A stretch of 64,000 nucleotides of DNA, from the NCBI GenBank assembly GCA_035607285.1, contig DATNBZ010000069.1, forward strand, positions 10,182 through 74,181. Direction: 5' to 3'. The position numbers and the translations under genes are program-made. This DNA comes from Blastocatellia bacterium (GTDB lineage Bacteria > Acidobacteriota > Blastocatellia > UBA7656). Shown here piece by piece: positions 3,581-60,686 of the stretch. How positions within the stretch are numbered: position 1 is the first letter of the stretch; the number at the start of each line of letters is the position of its first letter. Below the pieces are notes generated by a model that was not told where the DNA came from, did no database searches, and worked only from the letters and a program-made list of their open reading frames with translations.

Positions 3581-3732
3581 GGGTTCAGGGTTCTGTTTGC
3601 GAGCTTTGCGGTCCTTTGCGAGCTTTGCGCTAAAGGAACCTGAAAATACATTAGCGCAAAGCTCGCCAAGGACCGCAAAGTTCGCCAAGGAGCGCACCCG
3701 TTCGCCAAGGACCGCAAAGCTCGCAGAGAATA
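3581..3732. repeat. Family-A heptamer palindrome (CTTTGCG-type arms), a terminator-like inverted repeat between convergent genes.
   Basis: Arms TGCGAGCTTTGCGGTCCTTTGCGAGCTTTGCGC and GCGCAAAGCTCGCCAAGGACCGCAAAG are reverse-complementary. Confidence 0.7.
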
Positions 3733-3754: not shown

Positions 3755-4210
3755 TCACTTGTCGAGCGGGACGCTGACCACCGGCGTGTCCCAGTGCCCA
3801 AGCAGAATCTCGAACCTCCGCTGCTCTTCGCGTTTGTAAGTCTCCTGATCCGGATACAGCTTTTTGATGATCGGCTCTTCGCTCGCCTGGTCCGATGCCG
3901 CAGCCATATTCCTGAAGACTATCGTCACGCGATAATCCCAGCGCCCTTCTTCCGTCGCGTGATAACGCGGCTTCACGCAGGTTACGCTGAGTATCCGCCC
4001 CGTCTCCATCTGTTTCTTGAGTATCGGGTAGTGGTTCTTCAGGAATAGCCGTATGAACTCGTCGGCATATCCCCACCTGGCCTTGTAGTAGTAGTCCGCG
4101 GCGAACGGTTCGTCCACGGTTTTTGTCTGGCTGTTCACTGTTCCCCCGGCGCACACAAGAACGAGCCCGATCACAATAACCGCCATCGCGTTGCTAAGTC
4201 TGTGAGTCAT
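3755..4210 (-). CDS. Secreted hypothetical protein with a signal peptide, about 18 nt downstream of the second kinase gene.
   Basis: 151-aa ORF with hydrophobic N-terminus MAVIVIGLVLVCAGG and GGAGGA upstream of the ATG. Confidence 0.55.
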   Translation of the reverse strand: MTHRLSNAMAVIVIGLVLVCAGGTVNSQTKTVDEPFAADYYYKARWGYADEFIRLFLKNHYPILKKQMETGRILSVTCVKPRYHATEEGRWDYRVTIVFRNMAAASDQASEEPIIKKLYPDQETYKREEQRRFEILLGHWDTPVVSVPLDK

Positions 4211-4228
4211 GCATTCCTCCAGTGAGCG

Positions 4229-7200
4229 TTATCTGAAATCACTTATCAGGACTACGTCCGAAGTCTGAGCGCCACGCGCACATGCGAGCCGGCCATCACG
4301 AGACCAGTCCCAGGAAAACATTAGATCAGATTTGAAGTTGGTTAACTGTACCGGTGTGCCGCCCGCCAGCGGCTGGCCCCAAAGGTTTGAGACTCCCTGG
4401 TGAGTGTCGATGTAAGTCAAATACCGTCCGTCAGCAGTCCATCGAAGCTCGCGCCATGCGTTGATGGTCATGGTGTCGAAGACATGAGCCGGTTTCCCAT
4501 CTTCAAAGGAGAGGGCTGCGATGCGCAGTTGCCAGTCCGAACCCGGGGGTATGAAGTTACATGCGATCAGCTTTCCGTCAGGCGAAACGGAAGGCCGTTG
4601 CACCACGTCGTTCGCGCTGGTCACCTGGACCGGGACGCCGCCCTCGATAGGCGTCTTCCACAAAAGATGATTTCCGCCGGACTCCAACTGGAAGATCACC
4701 CACTTACCATCAGCGGAGCAGCTTGGAAACCAGCCTCCGTCAAAGTTCACTTGTGTAGGATTGTTTCCATCCGGGTCGATTCTCCAAATGTCGCTTCTGC
4801 CGGCTCGGTCGGAACCAAAGACGATGTAGCGGCCATCAGGCGAGACAGACGGATTGACGTTAGAGCCGGCGTCTGAAGTCAGTTGTTTTTGAGCAGTCCC
4901 GTCCGGGTTCATTATCCACAAGTCGAGCCGGCCGCTTGCCAGCGAGTGATACACGATCCTGCCGTCGGGCGTCCAACAAACGCCTCCCCCGTTATCCGCT
5001 CGGCCGGCGCCGGTTGGATTGTGCACGAACACACCCGCTCCGTATCTCCCGCCCCCGGACGTAATTTGTTTTGCACGAACGGCATCACCGCCGGGCGCAA
5101 CCCAGATGTTTGACACTTGATCGCTCTGCACGGTAACCAGGGCCTTTGAATCGGCGGTGAGGCTTATGTTGTTATAACCGTTCAGGTCGTTTGTAATCCT
5201 CCGCGCCTCACCGCTCGGATAAGCGAGGTGCCAGATCTGCGGCTGGCTTGAAGCTTTGTCTGACCCGGGAACCAGCAAACCGTTGCCATCCGGCAGCCAG
5301 GCGATTCGTCCGACGTTAAACCATTTCTGAGACTTGATCGGTTTCTCGGCCCCGCCCGATGTGGGAGCTTCTACGATGCTGAAACTGCCGTCCTGGAAGT
5401 TCTGAACGGTGAAAGCGATCACGCGGCCGTCAGGCGACCACGCCGAATCGTAAATGATCTCGGGCGTCCAACGCGAAGTAATCTTTCTTTCGCTGCTTCC
5501 GTCGGAGTTCATGACTAAGAGCAACTTCTCCGAGCGAGGCCCCTCTCCCCGGCCGGGTCTCCATCGAGCGAAAGCGATCTGCTTGCCGTCAGGAGAAAAC
5601 GTGAGACCGCCGTGCACTCTTTCTGTGATCTTCTTTGGGGCGCCGCCCAGCACCGGCATTTGATAAAGCGTGCTGTCCGGGAGACCTTCCTCTTGTTTGA
5701 CGTAGTAGACGTAATTCCCGTCGGGCGAAAAGATCAGCCCGTTGTATTGCGCGCCGCTGGCCGGTGCTATCAACACGCTGCTTGAAGTGGCGACCTGGCG
5801 CATCCAGATGTTCTGACCGGCTGCATCATTCATCACGAACGCCACGTATTTGCCGTCGGGCGATATTGCGGCTTCGGTGACACGGCCGGTCGTGGTGAGC
5901 CTGGCTACATTCATCGTTTGAAACGGCGCGGCGAGCTTATCCTGGCCAACAAATCGGTACAAACCATAGCCCACCGCGCCGATTAGAAGAATCACCGTTA
6001 ACAGCGCAATGGCCGCGCCGGTTTTGTGACGCTTGATTTCACTCAGGATTATCTCGGCGCTTGACGTAGTCCTGGGCGCCGGGCTGCCGGCGGTGTCCAG
6101 TGCAGGCGTTCCGCCGGTTCGAGCCGCAGCTTGCCGGCCCTGGGTACCTGCGCCGCGAGCATCGCCGGCGGTGGAATGCGCTGAAGGCCTGAGCTTTGAT
6201 TCGATCTCCAGTTCCTGCTTGAGGCTGCGCAGGTCGACCATGAAGTCGCGAACGCTTTGGTAGCGTTCCTCTCTGTCCTTCCGCAGGGCCTTGCTGACGA
6301 TTCGCTGAAGCTCAGCCGGAACGCGCTCAACATATCGCTCCAACTGCTCGGGCTCCGTCTTGAGTATCGAAGCGATAACGTCGCTTGTGGTCTCGCCCTG
6401 AAACGGCAGATGGCCCGTGACCATTTCGTAGAGCACCACGCCGAGACTGAAGATGTCTGTCCTCCCATCGACCGGGTGGCCGCGCGCCTGTTCGGGCGAC
6501 ATGTAATAAGCCGTACCGACGATCGTGCCTGGATCGGTCTGCAGCTTCATCACCGTCAGCGCCGTCTCGCTTGCGGGCGTTCGACTCTCCGTAAGCTTGG
6601 CCAGTCCGAAATCCAACACCTTCACGTAACGGTCGGGCCGCAGCATGATGTTTTCCGGTTTTATGTCCCGGTGAACTATCCCGGCGGCGTGCGCTGCCGC
6701 CAGCGCGCTCGAGGCCTGGGCGCATGCGTCGAGCACCTCGACGAGGCTCGAGCTTCGGCGCCGCATCAACGAGCGAAGCGTTTCGCCTTCGACGTATTCG
6801 GTGGCGATGAAGTGGATGCCGTCTATCTCTCCGACATCGAAAATGGTGAGAATGTTTGGATGATTCAATGCTGAAGCCGAGCGCGCCTCCATCTCGAATC
6901 GGCGCAGCCTGTCCGGGTCGCGGGTGTAAAAAGCCGGGAGCAGCTTGAGCGCGACGCGACGACCCAACCGGCGGTCCTGGGCGAGGTAGACTTCGCCCAT
7001 CCCTCCCACTCCGAGCACCTCGGTAATCTTGTAAGCCCCAAGCTCTCTTCCTATAAGAGATTCGCTCTCGCCATTGATCACAAGCTCGGCGGCCGCTTCG
7101 AAGACGGGCGCCTCGATGAAGCTGCCGGCTTTATCGTGAGAGTCGATCAACGCCTCGACTTCGCGGCGCAACGAACGATCTCCCTTGCATGCCTCATCGA

Positions 7201-7282
7201 GAAACGCCGCGCGCTCCGCCTGGCCGCGATCGAGCGCAGCCTGAAAAATGCCGTCGATTTGTTTCCAGCGTTCGGCCTTCAA
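4229..7282 (-). CDS. Ser/Thr protein kinase with C-terminal TolB/WD40-like beta-propeller repeats (paralog 2).
   Basis: 1017 aa. Hanks kinase motifs are present (GVGGMGEVYLA, VALKLL, HRDIKPENIM, DFGLAK, SPEQ), followed by a transmembrane helix and repeated SPDG/TPDG propeller blades. Confidence 0.9.
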   Translation of the reverse strand: MKAERWKQIDGIFQAALDRGQAERAAFLDEACKGDRSLRREVEALIDSHDKAGSFIEAPVFEAAAELVINGESESLIGRELGAYKITEVLGVGGMGEVYLAQDRRLGRRVALKLLPAFYTRDPDRLRRFEMEARSASALNHPNILTIFDVGEIDGIHFIATEYVEGETLRSLMRRRSSSLVEVLDACAQASSALAAAHAAGIVHRDIKPENIMLRPDRYVKVLDFGLAKLTESRTPASETALTVMKLQTDPGTIVGTAYYMSPEQARGHPVDGRTDIFSLGVVLYEMVTGHLPFQGETTSDVIASILKTEPEQLERYVERVPAELQRIVSKALRKDREERYQSVRDFMVDLRSLKQELEIESKLRPSAHSTAGDARGAGTQGRQAAARTGGTPALDTAGSPAPRTTSSAEIILSEIKRHKTGAAIALLTVILLIGAVGYGLYRFVGQDKLAAPFQTMNVARLTTTGRVTEAAISPDGKYVAFVMNDAAGQNIWMRQVATSSSVLIAPASGAQYNGLIFSPDGNYVYYVKQEEGLPDSTLYQMPVLGGAPKKITERVHGGLTFSPDGKQIAFARWRPGRGEGPRSEKLLLVMNSDGSSERKITSRWTPEIIYDSAWSPDGRVIAFTVQNFQDGSFSIVEAPTSGGAEKPIKSQKWFNVGRIAWLPDGNGLLVPGSDKASSQPQIWHLAYPSGEARRITNDLNGYNNISLTADSKALVTVQSDQVSNIWVAPGGDAVRAKQITSGGGRYGAGVFVHNPTGAGRADNGGGVCWTPDGRIVYHSLASGRLDLWIMNPDGTAQKQLTSDAGSNVNPSVSPDGRYIVFGSDRAGRSDIWRIDPDGNNPTQVNFDGGWFPSCSADGKWVIFQLESGGNHLLWKTPIEGGVPVQVTSANDVVQRPSVSPDGKLIACNFIPPGSDWQLRIAALSFEDGKPAHVFDTMTINAWRELRWTADGRYLTYIDTHQGVSNLWGQPLAGGTPVQLTNFKSDLMFSWDWSRDGRLACARGAQTSDVVLISDFR

Positions 7283-7304
7283 TGAACGTCCTTGACGCTA
7301 CCGA

Positions 7305-10300
7305 TTATCTGAAGCCGCCAATCAAGACCACATCGCTGGCGATGCTTCCGCGCGCCACAGCCAGTTGTTTGCCGTCACGCGACCAGGCGTGACTAAATAT
7401 TTGATCGGTCCTGAAGTTGGTCAACTGCTTCGGCGCGCCGCCGTCGATCGGATATGACCATATATTAGAAATGCTGTCGCGCAAGTCCGTGTATGTCAGC
7501 GCACGCCCGTCAGGCATCCAGTGAACCACTTGTTCAAGAGGCTGCGGCAGGTCAAAAACCTTTGTACGCTGCCCGCCTTCAACCGTTATAAGGGCGAATC
7601 TCTGACGCTTTGGCGTTGCCTGCTCATCCACGAATCTAAAGACAATCTGTTTTCCATCCGGAGATGGGGCGGGTCTGGCCGAAGAGTAGTCCGTGAGCCG
7701 AATTGGATTGCCGCCATCGATAGAGACCTTCCACAACTGGCTTACGCCCGTTTCGGTGCCTGAGTAAACCACCCATTGACCATCGGGGGTTATCTCCGCG
7801 TTCTGAGCGCTGGCTACGCCGGTCAATTGTTTCGGATTGCTGCCGTCCAGCTCCATTCTCCAAATACAGGAATTGCCTGTGCGATTCGAAGAAAAAACGA
7901 TATAGCGTCCGTCAGGGGAAACCGTTGGTCCAAGGCTCGCACGCTCATCAGCAGTCAATTGTTTCTGGCCTGTCCCATCCTTATTCACGATCCATATGTT
8001 CACGACGCTTCGCGTTCTGCTCGTGTAGATAATTCTGCCGTCAGGGGTCCAACATAAGCCGGACAAACCATCTGAGTTGTTCGATGTAATCTGGGTGGCG
8101 CGGCTTGCATCACCTGCGGGCGCTATCCATATGTTTGAGTTTTGCTGGGTCTGCACTGTGCCCAAAGCATTGGAGTCTGCGGTCAGGCTGATGCCGCCAT
8201 AATCATTCGTGTCATTTGTGATCCTTCGTACCTGGCCGCCGGGATAGGAAACATGCCAGATTTGCTGTGACGGATACGACTCTTTGTCGGAAGCGGCGAC
8301 GATCAAGCCGCTTCCATCCGAAAGCCATGCCAACTGACCGGCCGAACGCCACTGCTGATGGGTGATCTGCTGTTCGGTGTGATCTTTAATCCGGACCGTC
8401 ATCACATTCCAGTGGCTGCCGGAGGCGTCGCCGATTCTTAACGCATAGGCAATCCTCTCCCCATCGGGCGACCAGGATGGGCCCCAGGCTTTCTTTGATG
8501 TGGAATAGATGTCACGCTGGCTATGCGTAACCAGAGCTTGCTCTCCTGTGCCATCAACGTTCGAGGTCGCTACGACTCCTTCGTCGCGCTGCGGATAACC
8601 GCGCATGTAGACTAGTTGTTGGCCGTCGGGAGAAACACTGATGGCTCCATCCACATCCCTGGCCAGCATTTTTACCGAGCCGCCAAGGACCGGCACTCGA
8701 TACATCGCATTCTCGACCGATTCCCACCTTAGAAAGTAAATGTAATTCCCATCCGGAGAGAAGATCAGCGAGTTGTAGTCAACATGATCGGCGGGAACAA
8801 TCTCTGTATCGCTGCCCGTCGCAATATGCCTCAGCCAGAGGCTCTGCTGCCCTTTCCCTCCCAACGCGTGCGCCACATATTTCCCGTCTGGTGAGATCGC
8901 CGCACAACTCGCCTTTCCGGTTGTAGTAAGCCTGGTCAGTTTCATGCTGGCGAAGGACTCGGGCGATTGCGGTGCGATTTGTCGCTGGCTGAATAGCCTT
9001 GCTATTCCCATCCCAACTCCGGTAATCAAAATCGCCACGCCAATGAAAACCAGCGCCGCGCCTTTCTTGTGCCGCTTTATCTCGCTGAGGATGACCTCAG
9101 CGCTCGACGTCGTGAGCGCACCACCGTCTCCCGTCTTCTTCGGTGTTTGGCCGTCAGTATCGATGACCGCTTGCGTTCGAGTAGTCGTCCTGGAATCGTC
9201 GATATCCGGCGCTATGACTTGCGCACGCGCGGCTTGAAACTCGAGCTCCTGTTTTAGCCGCCGGAGATCAACCATCATGTCTCTTGCCGTCTGATAGCGG
9301 TCATCCCTGTCTTTCGTCAGCGCTTTTGTGACGATCCATTGCAGAGCCTCGGGAACATCATTCGAATAGCGCGCCAGCGGCGGCGGCTCCTTCGAAATTA
9401 TCAGGGCAATCAATTCGCCGGCAGTCTTGCCTTCAAACGGCGGGCGCGCCGCGATCATTTCGTAGAGTACCATTCCAAGACTGAAGAGATCGGTCCGCGA
9501 GTCGAGCGGCAACCCGCGGGCTTGCTCGGGCGACATATAATTCACTGTTCCCAGAACCGTACCCGGATCGGTATCGACCCGCGCGATGGTGGCCGCTTGA
9601 GTGTTGTCCGCGGCGCCGTGGCTCTCCGAAAGTTTCGCGAGCCCGAAGTCCAGGACCTTAACGAAACCATCGCGTCGCACCATTATGTTCTCCGGCTTTA
9701 TGTCGCGATGAATTATCCCGGCCTGATGCGCGGCCTCGAGCGCATTCGCCACCTGGATCGTTATCTCGAGAGACTCTTTCACGCTGAGGGTCGCGCTTGA
9801 TAGCCGCCGGCGAATTGTTTCCCCATCGATGTACTCCGTCGCCAGGAAACGGATTGAGTCTGCTTGTCCAATCTCGAAGATCGTGATGATGTTTGGATGA
9901 TTCAAGGCTGACGCGGCGCGCGCCTCTTGTTGAAATCTCCGAAGCCGCTGTTCATCCGCGGTGAAGTAATCCGGCAGGAGTTTCAGCGCCACGTTCCGGC
10001 CGAGACGGCGGTCCTGCGCGAGATAAACGTCACCCATCCCGCCCGCCCCGAGCAGTGCGGTGATCCTGTAAGGCCCAAGCTCTCTTCCGATCAGAATTCC
10101 ACCGTGAGCAGTTGCCAGGAGTTCAGGAGCCTGTGCGAAAACGGGAGACTCGATAAAGCTTCCGGCCTTGTCAGAAGAATCGATCAAGGCCTCTACTTCG
10201 CGGCGCAACGAATGATCTCCCTCGCATGCCTCATCGAGAAAAGCCTCGCGCTCCCGCGGGTCGCGTTCGATCGCGGCTTGAAACACCTTGTCGATTTGCT

Positions 10301-10319
10301 GATAGCGTTCAGGAGTCAT
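7305..10319 (-). CDS. Ser/Thr protein kinase with C-terminal TolB/WD40-like beta-propeller repeats (paralog 1).
   Basis: 1004 aa with the same architecture. The N-terminal 60 aa is nearly identical to paralog 2 (…REAFLDEACEGDHSLRREVEALIDSSDKAGSFIESPVF). Confidence 0.9.
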   Translation of the reverse strand: MTPERYQQIDKVFQAAIERDPREREAFLDEACEGDHSLRREVEALIDSSDKAGSFIESPVFAQAPELLATAHGGILIGRELGPYRITALLGAGGMGDVYLAQDRRLGRNVALKLLPDYFTADEQRLRRFQQEARAASALNHPNIITIFEIGQADSIRFLATEYIDGETIRRRLSSATLSVKESLEITIQVANALEAAHQAGIIHRDIKPENIMVRRDGFVKVLDFGLAKLSESHGAADNTQAATIARVDTDPGTVLGTVNYMSPEQARGLPLDSRTDLFSLGMVLYEMIAARPPFEGKTAGELIALIISKEPPPLARYSNDVPEALQWIVTKALTKDRDDRYQTARDMMVDLRRLKQELEFQAARAQVIAPDIDDSRTTTRTQAVIDTDGQTPKKTGDGGALTTSSAEVILSEIKRHKKGAALVFIGVAILITGVGMGIARLFSQRQIAPQSPESFASMKLTRLTTTGKASCAAISPDGKYVAHALGGKGQQSLWLRHIATGSDTEIVPADHVDYNSLIFSPDGNYIYFLRWESVENAMYRVPVLGGSVKMLARDVDGAISVSPDGQQLVYMRGYPQRDEGVVATSNVDGTGEQALVTHSQRDIYSTSKKAWGPSWSPDGERIAYALRIGDASGSHWNVMTVRIKDHTEQQITHQQWRSAGQLAWLSDGSGLIVAASDKESYPSQQIWHVSYPGGQVRRITNDTNDYGGISLTADSNALGTVQTQQNSNIWIAPAGDASRATQITSNNSDGLSGLCWTPDGRIIYTSRTRSVVNIWIVNKDGTGQKQLTADERASLGPTVSPDGRYIVFSSNRTGNSCIWRMELDGSNPKQLTGVASAQNAEITPDGQWVVYSGTETGVSQLWKVSIDGGNPIRLTDYSSARPAPSPDGKQIVFRFVDEQATPKRQRFALITVEGGQRTKVFDLPQPLEQVVHWMPDGRALTYTDLRDSISNIWSYPIDGGAPKQLTNFRTDQIFSHAWSRDGKQLAVARGSIASDVVLIGGFR

Positions 10320-10363
10320 GGAGCTGTGGTGATCACGATATCTGATCTATCTGCTGCCGGCGA

Positions 10364-10945
10364 TCAGGCTTCATCTGTCGCTCCTTCCTTAATCTCGCGA
10401 TAGAGCCATGCTTTTGCCGCTCGCCACTCTCGCTGGACCGTAGCAGGCGAAATAGCGAGAACCTCGGCGGTCTCTTCTATGTTCAGCCCGCCGATGTATC
10501 GCAGCTCGACGATTCGCGCCTTCCGCTCATCCATCGCTTCGAGGCTCGTCAGCGCATCGTCAAGCGCTACGAGATCGGCCGCCTGCTCTTGAGAGACAAT
10601 TGCCGCTTCGTCGAATGAAACCTTGACGGCTCGCCCGCCGCGCTTTGCGAAGTGGCGCTTTCGAGCATGCTCAACCAATATGCGGCGCATGGCCTGCGCA
10701 GCAACCGCGAAGAAATGTGCTCGGCTCTGCCAACGCATCTGGCTGTAATCCACCAGCCGCATGTAAGCTTCGTTGACCAGCGCCGAAGTTTGGAGCGTAT
10801 GGCCCGGCCGCTCCCGGCGCATGTAATAGGCGGCTAACCGGCGGAGTTCCTGGTACACGACGGGCACCAGCTTATCCAGCGCCGCCTTGTCGCCGTTGCC
10901 CCAATCCAGCAATAGTTGAGTAACTTGATTTTGTGAGAGTGTCAC
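10364..10945 (-). CDS. ECF-family RNA polymerase sigma factor (sigma-70 regions 2 and 4), first gene of the sigma-kinase-kinase operon.
   Basis: 193 aa with region-2-like [11 protein letters not shown] and a C-terminal region-4 helix-turn-helix ([26 protein letters not shown]). It lies 44 nt upstream of kinase 1. Confidence 0.8.
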
Positions 10946-10993: not shown

Positions 10994-11019
10994 ATTATAC
11001 CACGCTCGGTTGCTGGCAA
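10994..11019 (-). promoter_or_regulatory. Candidate sigma-70 promoter with an extended -10 (TTGCCA-N14-TGgTATAAT) for the ECF sigma/kinase operon.
   Basis: On the minus strand, the sequence TTGCCAGCAACCGAGCGTGGTATAAT lies about 50 nt upstream of the sigma gene ATG. Confidence 0.35.
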
Positions 11020-11200
11020 GAACAAATGTAGGTCGTCCCTCCTCAGAAACCCTGCCGGTACTTTTTTGCATCAGGCCACGCGTATAAAGAAACTCTGTAA
11101 AGCTGCAATGTTCGTAGTCCGGCCTTCAGGCGGAAGTTCGTAATTCAACGTAAACGCATGAAAGCTCCCCAAACCTACGGTTGTGGTAAGCCCGCGTAGT

Positions 11201-11340
11201 GGGCACTGGAGTTTGGAGATTTACAACCACGAAGTGGGCGCTGGAGTTTGGAGATTTACAACCACGAAGTGGGCGCTGGAGTTTGGACATTTACAACCAC
11301 GAAGTGGGCGCTGGAGTTTGGAGATTTACAACCACGAAGT
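11201..11340. repeat. Perfect-phase tandem repeat: 4 copies of a 35-bp unit (GGGCGCTGGAGTTTGGAGATTTACAACCACGAAGT).
   Basis: Read directly. The four units differ at only two positions. Confidence 0.9.
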
Positions 11341-11660
11341 GGTTGCGACCCAAAGCCCAGGGTTGCGGTACTCCGCTACCCTGGGTGACGGTGCCGTGCC
11401 GAGACCACTCAACGGGGTGGCACCAACCCCAAAGGGGTTGCGGCGTGGCTCGCGAGGTAGATTAACGACGAATGCGGCGGGCAGTGGGTGATGATGCGAT
11501 GGCAGGCCGCAACCCCTTCAGGGTTGGGCCAAACGAATTGGGTAGTCTCGGCACTGCACGGTCACCCAGGGTAGCAGAGTACCGCTACCTGAGCTGTAAG
11601 ACGCATCCCCTTCGGGGAAATGTCCAACTCAATCCCTAAGCCTGCGGTTGAGGGATTGCA
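11341..11660. ncRNA. Candidate structured non-coding RNA or regulatory region with long-range complementary segments and a UUCG-type hairpin. Its strand and function are unknown.
   Basis: CCGTGCCGAGAC pairs with GTCTCGGCACTGCACGG; GGGTGACGGTGC pairs with GCACGGTCACCC; CCAGGGTTGCGGTACTCCGCTACCCTGG pairs with the later CCAGGGTAGCAGAGTACCGCTACCTG; CCCCTTCGGGG forms a tetraloop hairpin. No credible ORF is present. Confidence 0.35.
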
Positions 11661-11736: not shown

Positions 11737-11860
11737 TTTTTACATTAGCCCAGGCGTTTACGCCTGGGTTCACAGGATTTTTACATTAGCCCAGGCGTTT
11801 ACGCCTGGGGTCACGGGATTTTTACATTAGCCCAGGCGTTTACGCCTGGGTTCACGGGAG
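11737..11860. repeat. Three tandem 41-bp units, each carrying the perfect hairpin CCCAGGCG-TTTA-CGCCTGGG. Two inverted-orientation copies lie at about 11966-11990 and 12032-12052, and a perfect palindrome CAAGCCCCGTTAACGGGGCTTG lies between them.
   Basis: Read directly. The units are nearly identical and the hairpin stem is 8 bp. Confidence 0.85.
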
Positions 11861-14145: not shown

Positions 14146-14265
14146 CTTAACGCAAGGACGCAAAGTCGCAAAGCCGCAAAGCCGCGATAGGAAGAAGAAA
14201 AAAGACTTTGCGTCCTTGCGTCCTTGCGGCTTTGCGTTAAAGAGATCTGCTTGCGGCTTTGCGTT
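14146..14265. repeat. Family-A-related palindrome (CGCAAAG/CTTTGCG units), terminator-like between convergent genes.
   Basis: CGCAAGGACGCAAAGTCGCAAAGCCGCAAAGCCGCG is reverse-complementary to CTTTGCGTCCTTGCGTCCTTGCGGCTTTGCG. Confidence 0.7.
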
Positions 14266-15163
14266 AAGGCGACTCGGCTGAGCTGATCATCGTGCCCGCG
14301 CCTTCGTCGGTGAAGACTTCGTGCAGAAGCGCGTTGCGCCTGGAACCGTTGATGATGTGCGCGCTGCGAACGCCTCGGCGAATAAGGTGGGCGATTGCGG
14401 CTATCTTCGGAAGCATGCCCGCGGATACGACTCGGTCTCGCACCAGGCGGTCAGCTTCCTCGGCAGTCAGTTTTGAGATTCTTGAAGAAGGGTCATCGCG
14501 ATCGCGCAGGATCCCGTCGACGTCGGTAAGCAAAATCAGTTTTTCAGCCTGTAGTTTGACGGCGATCTCCGCCGCGATCGTATCCGCGTTGATGTTGTAG
14601 ATGTTACCTTGCTCATCCGCGCCGAGCGAAGAGATCACCGGCACGTAGCCGTTCTCGAGCAATAATCGGAGCAGGCTCACGTTGATCTCGACGATGTCCC
14701 CCACGTGACCAAAATCAATCGTCTCGACTTCACCGGTCTCCTGGTTCATCACGTTTTGAATTTCGCGCCGCCGGGCGTGAATGATGTTCCCATCGATTCC
14801 CGACAGCCCGACCGTTTCGCATCCCGAGCGGCGCAACGCGGACACGATGTCCAGGTTGATCTGTCCCGCGAACACCATCTTTGCGACTTCGAGGGTCTCG
14901 GTGTTGGTGACTCGCCGCCCGTTGACGATTCGTTGTTCGATGCCCAGCCGTTCGGCGATGGTCGTGAGCTGTTTACCTCCACCGTGAATGACGGCGATGT
15001 GAATGCCGACCTGTTGAAGCAAGGTGATCTCTTCGGCAAGCGAGTTGAGTTGCTCCTGGTCCTCGGTGACTTTGCCGGAGAGCTTTACTACAAAGGTCTT
15101 GTTCTTGAAACGCTGTATGTAAGGAAGCGCTTCTCGTAGTAGATCGAGTCGTTCGTTAATCAT
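14264..15163 (-). CDS. argB: Acetylglutamate kinase
   Basis: 299-aa amino-acid kinase fold (VVKLSGKV, HGGG, GG at the C-terminus), sitting within arg gene context. Confidence 0.9.
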   Translation of the reverse strand: MINERLDLLREALPYIQRFKNKTFVVKLSGKVTEDQEQLNSLAEEITLLQQVGIHIAVIHGGGKQLTTIAERLGIEQRIVNGRRVTNTETLEVAKMVFAGQINLDIVSALRRSGCETVGLSGIDGNIIHARRREIQNVMNQETGEVETIDFGHVGDIVEINVSLLRLLLENGYVPVISSLGADEQGNIYNINADTIAAEIAVKLQAEKLILLTDVDGILRDRDDPSSRISKLTAEEADRLVRDRVVSAGMLPKIAAIAHLIRRGVRSAHIINGSRRNALLHEVFTDEGAGTMISSAESP

Positions 15164-15171
15164 TGAATGCT

Positions 15172-15312
15172 CGGTTCAAGGTTCAGGGTTCAGTCTTCTT
15201 TGCATGCTTTGCGGTCCTTTGCGTCTTTGCGTTGAGAATTTTCCGCGCCGTTGAGAATTCTCGGTGGTTCTCAACGCAAAGACGCAAAGGACCGCAAAGC
15301 ACGCAAATAAGA
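15172..15312. repeat. Family-A palindrome in the argF-argB intergenic gap.
   Basis: TTTGCGGTCCTTTGCGTCTTTGCGTTGAGAAT is reverse-complementary to ATTCTCAACGCAAAGACGCAAAGGACCGCAAAG. Confidence 0.8.
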
Positions 15313-15316
15313 AGAA

Positions 15317-16324
15317 CTAAATCATTGAAGCCAGCACCGCCTTCTGCACGTGCAAGCGATTCTCAGCCTCATCAATTGCCGCGTTTTGCGGACCATCCAA
15401 CACCCCATCCGTCACGACGACGTTCCGGCGCACGGGCAGGCAATGCATGAACCAGCCCTTGTCCGTCGCTCGCATGATCTCTTCGTCCACGCGCCAGTGT
15501 TTGTACTCCTGTCTGAGCTGTATGTCGGCTTCCACGCGCCCGTAAAACTGCTTCGCGCCCCAGCTTTTTGCGTAGACGATCCGCGCCCCTCGACAAGCGT
15601 CTCGCTGATCGCGAGAGACTCGAACGACACCGCCGCTTGAACTCGCTCCCGCCTGGATCTCGGCAATGGTTTCATCGCCGAGATCATATTCCGGCGGACA
15701 CGCAATCGTCAGATCGAGCCCCATCTGCGCCGCGACCAAAGCAAATGAATTCGGCACAGCCATCGGCAACGGCTTGGGATGATAAGCCCACGACAGAACT
15801 ACTTTCTGATGTGAGAATGCTCCGAGCTTCTCCCTGATAGTCATAGCGTCGGCCAACGCTTGAAAAGGATGGTGCCTGGAGGATTCGAGATTAAAGACCG
15901 GCGCGTCGCTGTGTTCTGCAAAGCCTCGAACGACGCTATCATTCATCTCCTCTTCGTAGTTCTTCATTTCGGGAAACGCTCGCACGCCGATCGCCGCAAC
16001 GTAGCGCGACAGCACACGGGCGGCTTCCTTGATGTGCTCGGTTTTGTCGCCATCCATCACGACGTTCTCGCGATGCTCCAGACTCCAGGTACCTTTGCCG
16101 ACATCGAGCGTGACCGGGTTGCCGCCGAGATCGAAGACCGCGATCTCCATCGAGGCTCGCGTTCGAAGCGAAGGATTGAAAAACACCAGCGCGACGCTCT
16201 TGCCTTGAAGCGGCCGCTCTCGATAATCGCCGGCTTTGATCTTCGTCGCGAGATCGATCAACGCCGTCAATTCGTCCGCCGTGAAGTCCGCGGTACTGAG
16301 AAAATCTCTTCCTCTCATGTTCAT
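15317..16324 (-). CDS. argF: Ornithine carbamoyltransferase-family enzyme (ATCase/OTCase fold). It has a divergent carbamoyl-phosphate motif SLRTR instead of STRTR, so it may be an N-acyl-ornithine transcarbamylase type.
   Basis: 335 aa with FNPSLRTR near the N-terminus and HCLP near the C-terminus, typical of the OTCase/ATCase family, in arg context. Confidence 0.8.
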   Translation of the reverse strand: MNMRGRDFLSTADFTADELTALIDLATKIKAGDYRERPLQGKSVALVFFNPSLRTRASMEIAVFDLGGNPVTLDVGKGTWSLEHRENVVMDGDKTEHIKEAARVLSRYVAAIGVRAFPEMKNYEEEMNDSVVRGFAEHSDAPVFNLESSRHHPFQALADAMTIREKLGAFSHQKVVLSWAYHPKPLPMAVPNSFALVAAQMGLDLTIACPPEYDLGDETIAEIQAGASSSGGVVRVSRDQRDACRGARIVYAKSWGAKQFYGRVEADIQLRQEYKHWRVDEEIMRATDKGWFMHCLPVRRNVVVTDGVLDGPQNAAIDEAENRLHVQKAVLASMI

Positions 16325-16337
16325 TTGGGGTTTGACT

Positions 16338-16434
16338 CTCTTTTGCGTTCTTTGCGGTCCTTTGCGTCTTTGCGTTGAGAATTCTCAACCAGGAATTCCT
16401 AACGCAAAGACGCAAAGGACCGCAAAGAACGCTA
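16338..16434. repeat. Family-A palindrome in the argD-argF intergenic gap.
   Basis: Same arms as at 15172-15312. Confidence 0.8.
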
Positions 16435-16444
16435 AGAAGCAACC

Positions 16445-17626
16445 TTATCCGAGAGCGATCCCGCTCAGCTCATCCAAAAACAAATCAATCTCTGCTCGCT
16501 TGAGCGTGAGCGGCGGCAACAGCCTCAGAACACTCGGATCATCCGAGAGCCCGGTGATGATCTTCCGATCGAGCAGCCCCTGCTGCACGGGCTTTGCGCT
16601 CCCGCCCGCGAACTTTATTCCGACCAGGTAGCCGAGCCCTCGCACTTCCTCAACCAGCAACATCTTTCTCAGCTTTCGAAACAGGTACTCGGAATTCTCG
16701 CGAACGTTCTCGAGCAGCCCTTCATCCCGAATAACATCAACCGTAGCCTCGAGCGCCGCGCACGCCAGAGGTCCTCCGCCAAAAGTGGTTCCCAGATCGC
16801 CCGTCTTTATCTCACCGGCAATCGCGTCGGTCATCAGCAGGGCGCCCATCGGCACTCCGCTGGCGATGCCTTTCGCGAGCGCGGCCATATCCGGCACGAC
16901 GCCCAGTTGCCCCGCGAAAAAGAACTCGCCGGTCCGCCCCATCCCCGTTTGCACTTCGTCGTAGATCAGCATCGCGTTAGCTTCATCACACCGCTCACGC
17001 AATGTTTGGTAGAACTCCGGCTCGGCCATTCGCACGCCGCCCATCGATTGAATCGGTTCGAGGATGACGGCCGCCGTTTCTTCATCAAGCAATGAGCTCA
17101 CGGAGTCAATGCTCCCGAACTCGGCGTACACGTGGCCCTCGAGAAGCGGCGAGACGTTCTCGCGATACTTGGCCAGCCCGGTGGCGGAAACCGATCCCGG
17201 GGTTCGCCCGTGAAACCCGCCTTCAAACGAAATGATCTTCTTCCGGCCGGTCAGCATCCGAGCGATCTTCATCGCGTTCTCATTAGCTTCGGTTCCCGAG
17301 TTGACGAAGAACGCTTTCGAAAGATCCGGCGGCGCAATCTCGACCAGCTTTTTGGCGGCTCGAGCGCGTGCGTCGTTGTAGACGAGATTCGAATAGAAGA
17401 TCAATCGCGAGGCTTGATCAGTGATGGCCTTAACGATGCGAGGATGCGAATGTCCGGTCGACACAACGGCATGCCCGCCGTAGAGATCGAGATATCGCTC
17501 ACCCTCTGACGTGTAGACCCAAACGTCTTCGCCACGTTCTATTACGAAAGGAAACTTCTTATAAGTCGCGACCTGGTATTGCTCTTCGATGTCGATCAGG
17601 TTTTCGAGTGTTGGTTGTGTAGTCAA
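16445..17626 (-). CDS. argD: Acetylornithine aminotransferase (class III PLP aminotransferase).
   Basis: 393-aa class-III aminotransferase pattern (GGHAVVSTGHSHP ... DEVQTGMGRTG), in arg context. Confidence 0.9.
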   Translation of the reverse strand: MTTQPTLENLIDIEEQYQVATYKKFPFVIERGEDVWVYTSEGERYLDLYGGHAVVSTGHSHPRIVKAITDQASRLIFYSNLVYNDARARAAKKLVEIAPPDLSKAFFVNSGTEANENAMKIARMLTGRKKIISFEGGFHGRTPGSVSATGLAKYRENVSPLLEGHVYAEFGSIDSVSSLLDEETAAVILEPIQSMGGVRMAEPEFYQTLRERCDEANAMLIYDEVQTGMGRTGEFFFAGQLGVVPDMAALAKGIASGVPMGALLMTDAIAGEIKTGDLGTTFGGGPLACAALEATVDVIRDEGLLENVRENSEYLFRKLRKMLLVEEVRGLGYLVGIKFAGGSAKPVQQGLLDRKIITGLSDDPSVLRLLPPLTLKRAEIDLFLDELSGIALG

Positions 17627-20275: not shown

Positions 20276-20384
20276 ACTTTTGCGTGCTTTGCGGTCCTTT
20301 GCGTCTTTGCGTTGAGAATTCAGGAATACTCAACGCAAAGACGCAAAGTACCGCAAAGCACGCAAAGCGGACACGCAAAGCCTG
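20276..20384. repeat. Family-A palindrome between the unknown arg-cluster gene and argC.
   Basis: TTTGCGGTCCTTTGCGTCTTTGCGTTGAGAATTCAGGAATACTCAACGCAAAGACGCAAAG. Confidence 0.8.
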
Positions 20385-23335: not shown

Positions 23336-23466
23336 ATTTGCGTGCTTGCGGGTCCTTGGCGTGCTTTGCGGTCCTTTGCGTGCTTGCGGGTCCTTGGCGT
23401 GCTTTGCGGTCCTTTGCGTCTTTGCGTTGAGTATTATTTCTCGCAAAGGGCCGCAAAGCACGCCAG
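23336..23466. repeat. Family-A repeat cluster (tandem GCGTGCTTGCGGGTCCTTGGCGTGCTTTGCGGTCCTTTGCG units plus an inverted arm).
   Basis: Read directly. Confidence 0.75.
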
Positions 23467-27034: not shown

Positions 27035-27131
27035 CCGCGTGCTTTGCGACCTTCGCGTTGAGTATTGTGTCTTGCTCCTTCAACACCCAATACTCCGCGC
27101 AAAGGTCGCAAAGGACCGCAAAGCACGCGAA
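27035..27131. repeat. Family-A-related palindrome between the SDR gene and mazG.
   Basis: GCGTGCTTTGCGACCTTCGCGTTGAGTATTG is reverse-complementary to CAATACTCCGCGCAAAGGTCGCAAAGGACCGCAAAGCACGC. Confidence 0.75.
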
Positions 27132-27149
27132 GGATTGTATGCACAGCGG

Positions 27150-60257: not shown

Positions 60258-60686
60258 TCAGGACTCTTGCAAAACGGGGAGCGCCTCTTTCAAATGCGCC
60301 TGCATTTCTCTGAACGCGAGCCGCAATGTGTGCATTTCAGCTTTGGTATGATGAGCTACGCTAGCGAGACGATCGATTTCGTTATCCACCAGACTGAAGC
60401 GTGCATTAACCTGATCAAAGCGCTCGTCAATCTGAGCAAAGCGCTCGTCAATCTGAGCAAAGCGTTCGTCAATCTGAGCAAAGCGCGCATCAACCTGATC
60501 AAAGCGCGCATCAACTTTCCGTTCAAGGGCATCGATCCGCTCGTCGATCTTTTGCTCAAGCGCGTTGATCCGGTCGTCGATCGTTTTCTCGAGGGCGTTG
60601 ATTCGGTCGTCGATCTTCTCATCGAACGCGCCGATTCTTTCAAGGACTGTTTCGATGGTAGGCCGGGTAGTCATGTCGTCAGTCAT
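60258..60686 (-). CDS. Coiled-coil hypothetical protein built from heptad repeats (DERFAQI x3 and variants), encoded by a 21-bp tandem DNA repeat.
   Basis: The DNA at 60400-60545 has tandem 21-mers (GAGCAAAGCGCTCGTCAATCT-type). The translation is IDDRINALE...DERFAQIDERFAQIDERFAQIDERFDQVNARF. Confidence 0.55.
   Translation of the reverse strand: MTDDMTTRPTIETVLERIGAFDEKIDDRINALEKTIDDRINALEQKIDERIDALERKVDARFDQVDARFAQIDERFAQIDERFAQIDERFDQVNARFSLVDNEIDRLASVAHHTKAEMHTLRLAFREMQAHLKEALPVLQES

Follow-up and report, generated by a model that had tools for sequence, protein, structure and literature searches.

The 64,000-nucleotide stretch analysed here (the window; positions 10,182 to 74,181 of contig DATNBZ010000069.1, assembly GCA_035607285.1, from a Blastocatellia bacterium) encodes an extracytoplasmic function (ECF) sigma factor followed by two tandem Hanks-type Ser/Thr kinases, both of which open with a shared module of about 60 residues. 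We find that this N-terminal module is a real and independent domain family, recovered far beyond chance and uncatalogued in Pfam and NCBIfam, and that it appears to be a hallmark of the kinases cognate to sigma factors of group ECF43, PknS of Xanthomonas citri included. Taken as a whole, the data are best explained by a kinase-activated ECF43 unit in which the module would act as a docking and specificity domain, a reading to which we give somewhat better than even confidence. The locus is otherwise an ordinary ECF43 unit and a fresh example of a known sigma–kinase switch. The features on which the argument turns are as follows (lengths in amino acids, aa):

10945-10364, minus strand: ECF sigma factor gene, 193 aa, GTG start
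10319-7305, minus strand: kinase 1 gene, 1004 aa, ATG start
10137..10319, minus strand: kinase 1 module, residues 1-61, profile match 112 bits
7305..10136, minus strand: remainder of kinase 1, with linker 62-83 and kinase domain 84-345 (DNA 9285-10079)
C-terminal part of kinase 1: transmembrane segment 422-440, extracytoplasmic PD40/TolB-like beta-propeller region 443-1004
7282-4229, minus strand: kinase 2 gene, 1017 aa, TTG start
7100..7282, minus strand: kinase 2 module, profile match 98 bits
4229..7099, minus strand: remainder of kinase 2, with kinase domain (DNA 6254-7042), transmembrane segment 423-441 and propeller ectodomain

An ECF43 sigma factor and its two kinases

Judged from its sequence, the locus has every defining feature of the ECF43 group that can be checked at that level. 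The sigma factor, which the preliminary description of this DNA had left to be classified, is of ECF43 type by its matches to PF07638 (8.5e-57, 192.5 bits, cut-off 21.1) and TIGR02999 (7e-69, 231.4 bits, cut-off 126.15), two models that stand in here as a proxy for the group hidden Markov models of ECF classification 2.0. The protein is of the two-domain ECF type, with sigma2 and sigma4. Residues 52-55, in sigma region 2.2, read QTSA, an uncharged stretch in place of the acidic DAED motif. Among 157 aligned relatives, the S54 column holds T in 90% and S in 10% of the sequences, position 53 is occupied by T, P, A or S, and neither column is acidic in any relative; the column of S110, located in the linker between sigma2 and sigma4, reads S36/T23/E13.

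These features have a counterpart in the experimental literature. Sigma factors of the ECF43 group carry uncharged residues in region 2.2 where others have the acidic DAED, the motif that makes contact with the beta' clamp; the adjoining Hanks kinase phosphorylates a Thr at region 2.2, and in EcfK a linker Thr as well; and phosphorylation turns on an otherwise inactive sigma factor, an anti-sigma factor not being involved (PMC8999054, PMC8103513, PMC7826278, PMC13147305). S54, together with T53, is likely the phospho-acceptor of the window sigma factor, and S110 in the linker is a possible second site. We note that the match of QTSA to STTA of EcfP and to T51 of EcfK was judged from the surrounding HTLQxTALVxEAY context and not by direct alignment. 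A search of PDB sequences with the sigma factor returned nothing at E<=0.01.

No anti-sigma factor is expected at this locus, because the sigma factor belongs to a class activated by kinase phosphorylation. Indeed, family scans found no anti-sigma family among the four operon genes or the scanned flanking open reading frames (ORFs), although a distant or unrecognisable one may exist; the earlier observation that no anti-sigma gene is present thus holds within the cluster and beside it. Two Hanks-type kinase genes lie directly downstream of the sigma gene, a kinase gene close by being a mark of the ECF43 group, and the ECF sigma/Ser-Thr-kinase pairing pointed out in the preliminary description is of the known ECF43 type.

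Both kinases match Pkinase at residues ~84-343 (8.1e-47 for kinase 1 and 3e-47 for kinase 2) and retain intact catalytic motifs (GxGGMG, VALK, HRDIKPEN, DFG and SPE). Hydropathy reveals a single hydrophobic segment in each protein, at the transmembrane positions listed above, and the PD40/TolB-like propeller repeats (PD40, 6.3e-34 for kinase 1 and 1.7e-36 for kinase 2) lie C-terminal to it. The two kinases are 50% identical overall, with 73% identity in the module (44/60), 61% in the kinase domain and 45% in the ectodomain. The modules had been called almost identical; they are the best conserved region of the two proteins, but at 73% that wording was too strong.

The module is an uncatalogued domain family

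Neither Pfam nor NCBIfam offers a model for residues 1-80 of either kinase, and 18 module sequences scanned alone gave no match to these libraries, and none to an anti-sigma family, even at E<=10. A module profile of 62 positions, derived from both copies in the window plus 16 fragments, was searched against 1.84 billion cluster representatives and matched 51,821 of them at E<=1e-3, of which 13,081 reached E<=1e-10. Such a search with the N-terminal 60 aa alone had been proposed as a check in the preliminary description, and it recovers an independent family whose association with ECF43 sigma genes holds whichever of the two is taken as the starting point, as the next section describes. Among the best 150 matches, every protein of at least 350 aa (29/29) carries the HRD kinase motif. 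The module begins within the first five residues in 127/149 of the best matches and is present as two tandem copies in 30/149 of the best representatives, while protein P0025 contains ten copies ahead of its kinase domain. Multi-copy modules of two, three or ten units before the kinase domain were observed in P0025, P0068, P0031, P0034 and P0076.

The AlphaFold2 model of the kinase 1 module contains three predicted helices (residues 3-17, 21-31 and 36-56; mean predicted local distance difference test score, pLDDT, 81.4). The predicted fold is a generic three-helix unit, and structural comparison gave no informative neighbour.

A trace of what may be an additional module copy is found at the junction of the sigma and kinase 1 genes:

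10333..10374, minus strand: relic ORF of 13 codons, resembling the first 12 module residues

The relic starts where the kinase genes of related loci start, overlapping the last 8 coding bases of the sigma gene, and the same 8-nucleotide (nt) sigma/module overlap is seen in loci L014, L022, L035, L037 and L078. The true start of kinase 1 is located 55 nt beyond the relic start. A relic of 28 codons accompanies a relative's protein, P0006. These remnants suggest that a first module has decayed or that a kinase once encoded upstream was lost.

Module-only ORFs of 62-69 aa also occur, in a single lineage, 0.8-4 kb from ECF43 sigma–kinase pairs. In this one syntenic lineage the stand-alone module genes (L001, 6001-6210; L082, 5610-5819; L084, 5169-5378; L085, 2776-2985 and 6001-6189) are divergent from the ECF43 sigma–kinase pair. 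They are preceded by a gene of ~165 aa without a family match and followed by variable secreted proteins (FecR/pentapeptide, Kelch propeller or outer membrane protein barrel). The idea that the ~165-aa genes encode cryptic sigma factors was dropped, as they gave no sigma-like Pfam match at E<=1. On long contigs, most modules that seemed to stand alone proved to be ordinary sigma–module–kinase genes split by frameshifts in long-read assemblies; the P0018-P0024 and P0239 lineages are the only ones whose stand-alone modules look genuine. In a Thermoanaerobaculia lineage (L208; 19 contigs) the module is a separate ORF of 86 aa (4001-4261), 21 nt before the kinase ORF; a frameshifted ECF43 sigma gene (2184-2709) lies 1.3 kb off on the opposite strand, under a gene that is probably mis-called.

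The module and ECF43 sigma genes co-occur in both directions

Sigma neighbours of the module were collected by scanning a genome collection with an eight-sequence alignment that covered the module only; 553 matches were confirmed and the best 80 loci were kept. In ~70 of these best 80 of 553, an ECF43-like sigma ORF that scores >200 bits against the window's sigma factor lies directly upstream on the same strand, and most of the exceptions have too little upstream sequence, whereas four (L029, L034, L054 and L081) genuinely have no sigma gene in the DNA available. The median gap between sigma and module is 40 nt in the 63 loci that give full-length sigma factor, module and kinase domain, and the end of the sigma gene often overlaps the kinase start by 8 nt.

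The reverse scan used only the sigma motif HTLQx[S/T]ALVxEA against metagenomes and yielded 120 unranked loci, 93 of which extend 300 nt or more past the 3' end of the sigma gene and could be evaluated. The module is encoded directly downstream on the same strand in 78/93, at a median gap of 24 nt and with the kinase domain also visible in 61. Four of the 93 loci have a module–kinase elsewhere, and ten have neither module nor kinase near the sigma gene. The preliminary description had reasoned that a module common in kinases without a sigma neighbour would speak against its proposal; among the loci fetched by the module it is rarely without one (~70/80).

The nearest related loci come from Blastocatellia and Pyrinomonadaceae bins (Acidobacteriota). 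The same arrangement is found on a replicon of Gemmatirosa kalamazoonensis (Gemmatimonadota), a plasmid, and in Verrucomicrobiota bins, and counting PknS brings its range to four phyla or more. This co-occurrence gives good grounds for proposing that the module interacts with the sigma factor.

Kinases that share a sigma factor keep similar modules

The tandem duplication of the kinase, which had been singled out as worth examining, is a recurrent arrangement, seen at nine or more further loci: one sigma gene followed by two or three module–kinases is present, for instance, in L009, L023, L025, L027, L032, L043, L081 and L141. The tandem kinases of L009, the closest related locus, still have a truncated ECF43 sigma remnant between them (6366-6566; 100 bits), a sign that entire sigma–kinase units are duplicated and that the second sigma gene decays afterwards.

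Nine tandem pairs in which an intact sigma gene does not separate the two kinases, the window pair among them, were compared. Module identity in these pairs is 60-93%, versus 41-78% for the kinase domain, and the module is the more conserved of the two in 8/9, the exception being L141 (72% vs 78%). For pairs taken between loci, with kinase domains 40-60% identical, the modules are only 53-54 ± 5-6% identical. Where one locus holds two complete sigma–kinase units, the modules are 25% (L065) and 29% (L139, with sigma factors 53% identical) identical.

Sequence divergence was further analysed over 100 sigma/module/kinase triplets by partial correlations and partial Mantel tests, the latter being liberal when sequences share phylogeny. 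Module divergence follows that of the sigma factor at given kinase domain (partial r 0.53) and that of its own kinase domain at given sigma factor (partial r 0.28). When the sigma factor is divided into its domains, the module correlates with sigma4, given sigma2 and the kinase domain (partial r 0.37, p=0.001), and with sigma2, given sigma4 and the kinase domain (partial r 0.22, p=0.001). The kinase domain correlates with sigma2, given sigma4 and the module (partial r 0.35, p=0.001), versus a partial r of 0.05 (p=0.11) with sigma4, given sigma2 and the module. This coupling of kinase domain and sigma2 cannot be due to adjacency, because sigma4 is encoded nearer to the kinase domain, and it fits a phospho-site in sigma2. 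The coupling of module and sigma4 is only suggestive, since gene adjacency can explain it.

Comparison with characterised sigma–kinase pairs

PDB sequences searched with the module profile gave a single significant chain, 9eed_A, which is PknS(1-364) from Xanthomonas citri. Residues 9-56 of PknS match the profile at E=8e-4, a marginal score but at the expected position. PknS directly phosphorylates the ECF43 sigma factor EcfK, and the PknS(1-364) construct that phosphorylated EcfK in vitro contained the N-terminal segment (PMC13147305). The first 81-83 residues of PknS are invisible in the crystal, and AlphaFold places three to four antiparallel helices and a flexible linker there; the authors call this stretch 'conserved among Xanthomonadaceae homologs' and consider that it 'may play a functional role', without assigning a function (PMC13147305).

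The EcfK/PknS pair resembles the window locus in several respects. An ECF43 sigma gene adjoins the gene of a transmembrane Hanks kinase without an anti-sigma factor, S/T replaces the acidic region 2.2 motif, an S/T is present in the linker, and a helical N-terminal segment of ~80 aa that matches the module profile precedes the kinase domain. However, PknS has a tetratricopeptide repeat (TPR) ectodomain and the pairing is of one kinase to one sigma factor, whereas the window has two kinases with PD40/TolB-like propellers; the host of EcfK/PknS is a gammaproteobacterium with a type VI secretion system regulon, in contrast to the Acidobacteriota-like bacterium here; and the PknS module is very divergent from the window modules.

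EcfP/PknT of Vibrio parahaemolyticus was the first known example of a sigma factor activated through phosphorylation of a threonine (PMC8999054). EcfP likewise has an uncharged motif at the beta'-contact site, STTA there and QTSA here, and is intrinsically inactive until activated by the neighbouring Ser/Thr kinase PknT, a gene pairing that is the same in the window. While the acceptor of EcfP is a Thr, the window sigma factor has a Ser at the corresponding position, as is also the case in 10% of the aligned relatives. Anti-sigma domains of class I (the RseA, RsrA and ChrR type) are, like the module, small, cytoplasmic, helical, membrane-tethered and encoded immediately 3' of an ECF sigma gene, but these families have no sequence similarity to the module in the scan of 18 sequences described above.

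Proposed mechanism and alternative explanations

We propose that the window sigma factor would be made inactive, because the acidic motif with which region 2.2 otherwise touches the beta' clamp of RNA polymerase is replaced by uncharged QTSA. Each membrane Hanks kinase would sense an extracytoplasmic signal via its own diverged beta-propeller ectodomain and would phosphorylate the sigma factor, most likely at S54/T53 and perhaps at S110 in the linker, whereupon the phosphate would supply the missing negative charge and lead to holoenzyme formation. For this part of the mechanism, the experimentally studied pairs EcfP/PknT and EcfK/PknS serve as the model. The three-helix module, held on a flexible linker of ~20 aa, would dock the cognate ECF43 sigma factor and set partner specificity. 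Two kinases with different sensors but matching modules would then feed one sigma factor, and paralogous sigma–kinase pairs within one genome would stay insulated. We infer both the phosphorylation of the window sigma factor and a physical contact between module and sigma factor. For docking and partner specificity as such, which we read from genomic association, we regard the chances as evenly balanced.

A different view of the module is that of a regulatory element intrinsic to the kinase, such as an autoinhibitory or dimerisation helix bundle, whose coupling to the sigma gene reflects shared ancestry only. It would accommodate the findings that all long family members are kinases with the module always N-terminal to the kinase domain, that tandem copies reach ten in P0025, which is odd for a one-to-one docking site, that the fold is generic with no informative structural neighbour, and that some module–kinases have no nearby sigma gene. 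It fits less well with the divergence data, in which the module follows the sigma factor more than its own kinase domain, with the matching modules of tandem kinases that share a sigma factor, which separate units in one locus do not have, and with the kinase-free module ORFs found near ECF43 pairs in one lineage; we consider it unlikely. The preliminary description had instead pictured the module as a substitute for an anti-sigma factor, and one can imagine that it holds the unphosphorylated sigma factor at the membrane and frees it upon phosphorylation. The lack of an anti-sigma gene in or beside the cluster, the tethering of the module to the membrane by the kinase and the somewhat closer tracking of sigma4, a usual anti-sigma contact, than of sigma2 would all agree with such a role, as would the same sigma–module association data that argue for docking. 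No substitute is needed, however, for a sigma factor that is intrinsically inactive without DAED and switched by phosphorylation (PMC8999054, PMC13147305), and we saw no sequence similarity and no clear fold similarity between the module and anti-sigma domains; we rate an anti-sigma-like function as improbable.

For the window pair alone, the similarity of the modules could also be a by-product without functional meaning, the 5' ends of tandem paralogues having been duplicated recently or homogenised by gene conversion. Third-codon-position identity, which is 67% in the window modules versus 48% in the kinase domain, points in this direction, and the sigma remnant of L009 indicates that whole units duplicate and then decay. 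On the other hand, the excess of module conservation recurs in 8/9 tandem pairs, all from different loci and with kinase domains only 41-61% identical, and the family is conserved across phyla, which makes a by-product a decidedly poor prospect as the full explanation. Returning to the kinase-activated unit with a docking module, several observations count against it. The elevated third-position identity (67% vs 48%) means that gene conversion may partly explain the module similarity in the window. Five loci (L029, L034, L054, L081 and L215) have a module–kinase but no sigma gene within the available DNA, one of the 93 sigma-fetched loci (L135) has a kinase without a recognisable module directly after the sigma gene, and the second tandem kinase lacks the module in L125 and L017. 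Both locus samples are dominated by Acidobacteriota-like soil bacteria, and the association of sigma gene and module could reflect inheritance of a single ancestral operon and not function. Linkage and recombination of the adjacent sigma and module coding regions could lie behind the distance correlations, for which the liberal behaviour of the partial Mantel tests also has to be considered, and the match to PknS is marginal.

Organisation and surroundings of the cluster

Two further features of the cluster are the gene that closes it and a promoter-like element:

4210-3755, minus strand: small-protein gene, 151 aa, hydrophobic N-terminus
10994..11002, minus strand: extended -10-like element TGgTATAAT, 49 nt 5' of the sigma GTG, found by eye

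All four genes were re-found on the minus strand with the coordinates of the preliminary description and with gaps of 44, 22 and 18 nt between sigma, kinase 1, kinase 2 and small gene. They form one tightly packed cluster, in agreement with the operon that had been proposed. The TTG of kinase 2 is the first start past an in-frame stop and is preceded by AAGGA. Terminator-like sites are in no excess within the cluster (7 observed vs 7.7 expected from shuffled sequence). TGgTATAAT was missed by the consensus promoter scan, and its role as a promoter is putative; TTGCCA (11019-11014) is unfit as its -35 element because the spacing is only 14 nt.

The small 151-aa gene is probably co-transcribed with the kinases. 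Its product has no Pfam or NCBIfam match and no homologue across ~200 related loci; it is therefore not a conserved component but lineage-specific, and a role as a conserved regulon member or partner was rejected on this ground.

The cluster is flanked by arginine-biosynthesis genes, argH-like on one side and argB-, argF- and argD-like on the other (1565-2956 and 14264-17626), and may have inserted into a neighbourhood of arg genes. The 1.3-kb intergenic region 5' of the sigma gene holds two tandem arrays, at 11198-11342 and 11737-11859. One of the pair consists of a 35-bp unit repeated 4.1 times with 97% matches; the second has three copies of a 41-bp unit containing the perfect hairpin CCCAGGCG TTTA CGCCTGGG. 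Short arrays of a 19-nt unit (~CGCAAAGYWCGCMAAGGAC) are dispersed at gene ends (3655-3724, 20333-20381, 23337-23426 and 27098-27134), one of them just past the small gene that closes the operon, and look like a repetitive extragenic palindromic (REP)-like intergenic repeat. At 60397-60635, overlapping tandem repeats with units of 21, 33 and 42 nt possibly represent a repetitive coding region, unrelated to the cluster.

Implications

The activation of sigma factors through Ser/Thr phosphorylation has been established only recently as a signalling mode, and the cited literature gives no account of how kinase and sigma factor find each other. We tentatively suggest, at a little short of even confidence, that the module is a portable, uncatalogued sigma-docking domain present in at least 50,000 kinase clusters from several phyla, that its sequence would constitute a specificity code, and that the multi-copy (2-10) and stand-alone versions may be scaffolds or decoys that tune sigma availability. 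If the module is indeed a docking and specificity domain, it would merit its own entry in the domain libraries, in which kinase N-termini by the tens of thousands now lack annotation. It would also provide a sequence handle for predicting kinase–sigma wiring from genomes, would explain how tandem kinases merge different signals into one regulon, and would offer a small part that can be swapped between proteins to engineer orthogonal transcription under phospho-control.

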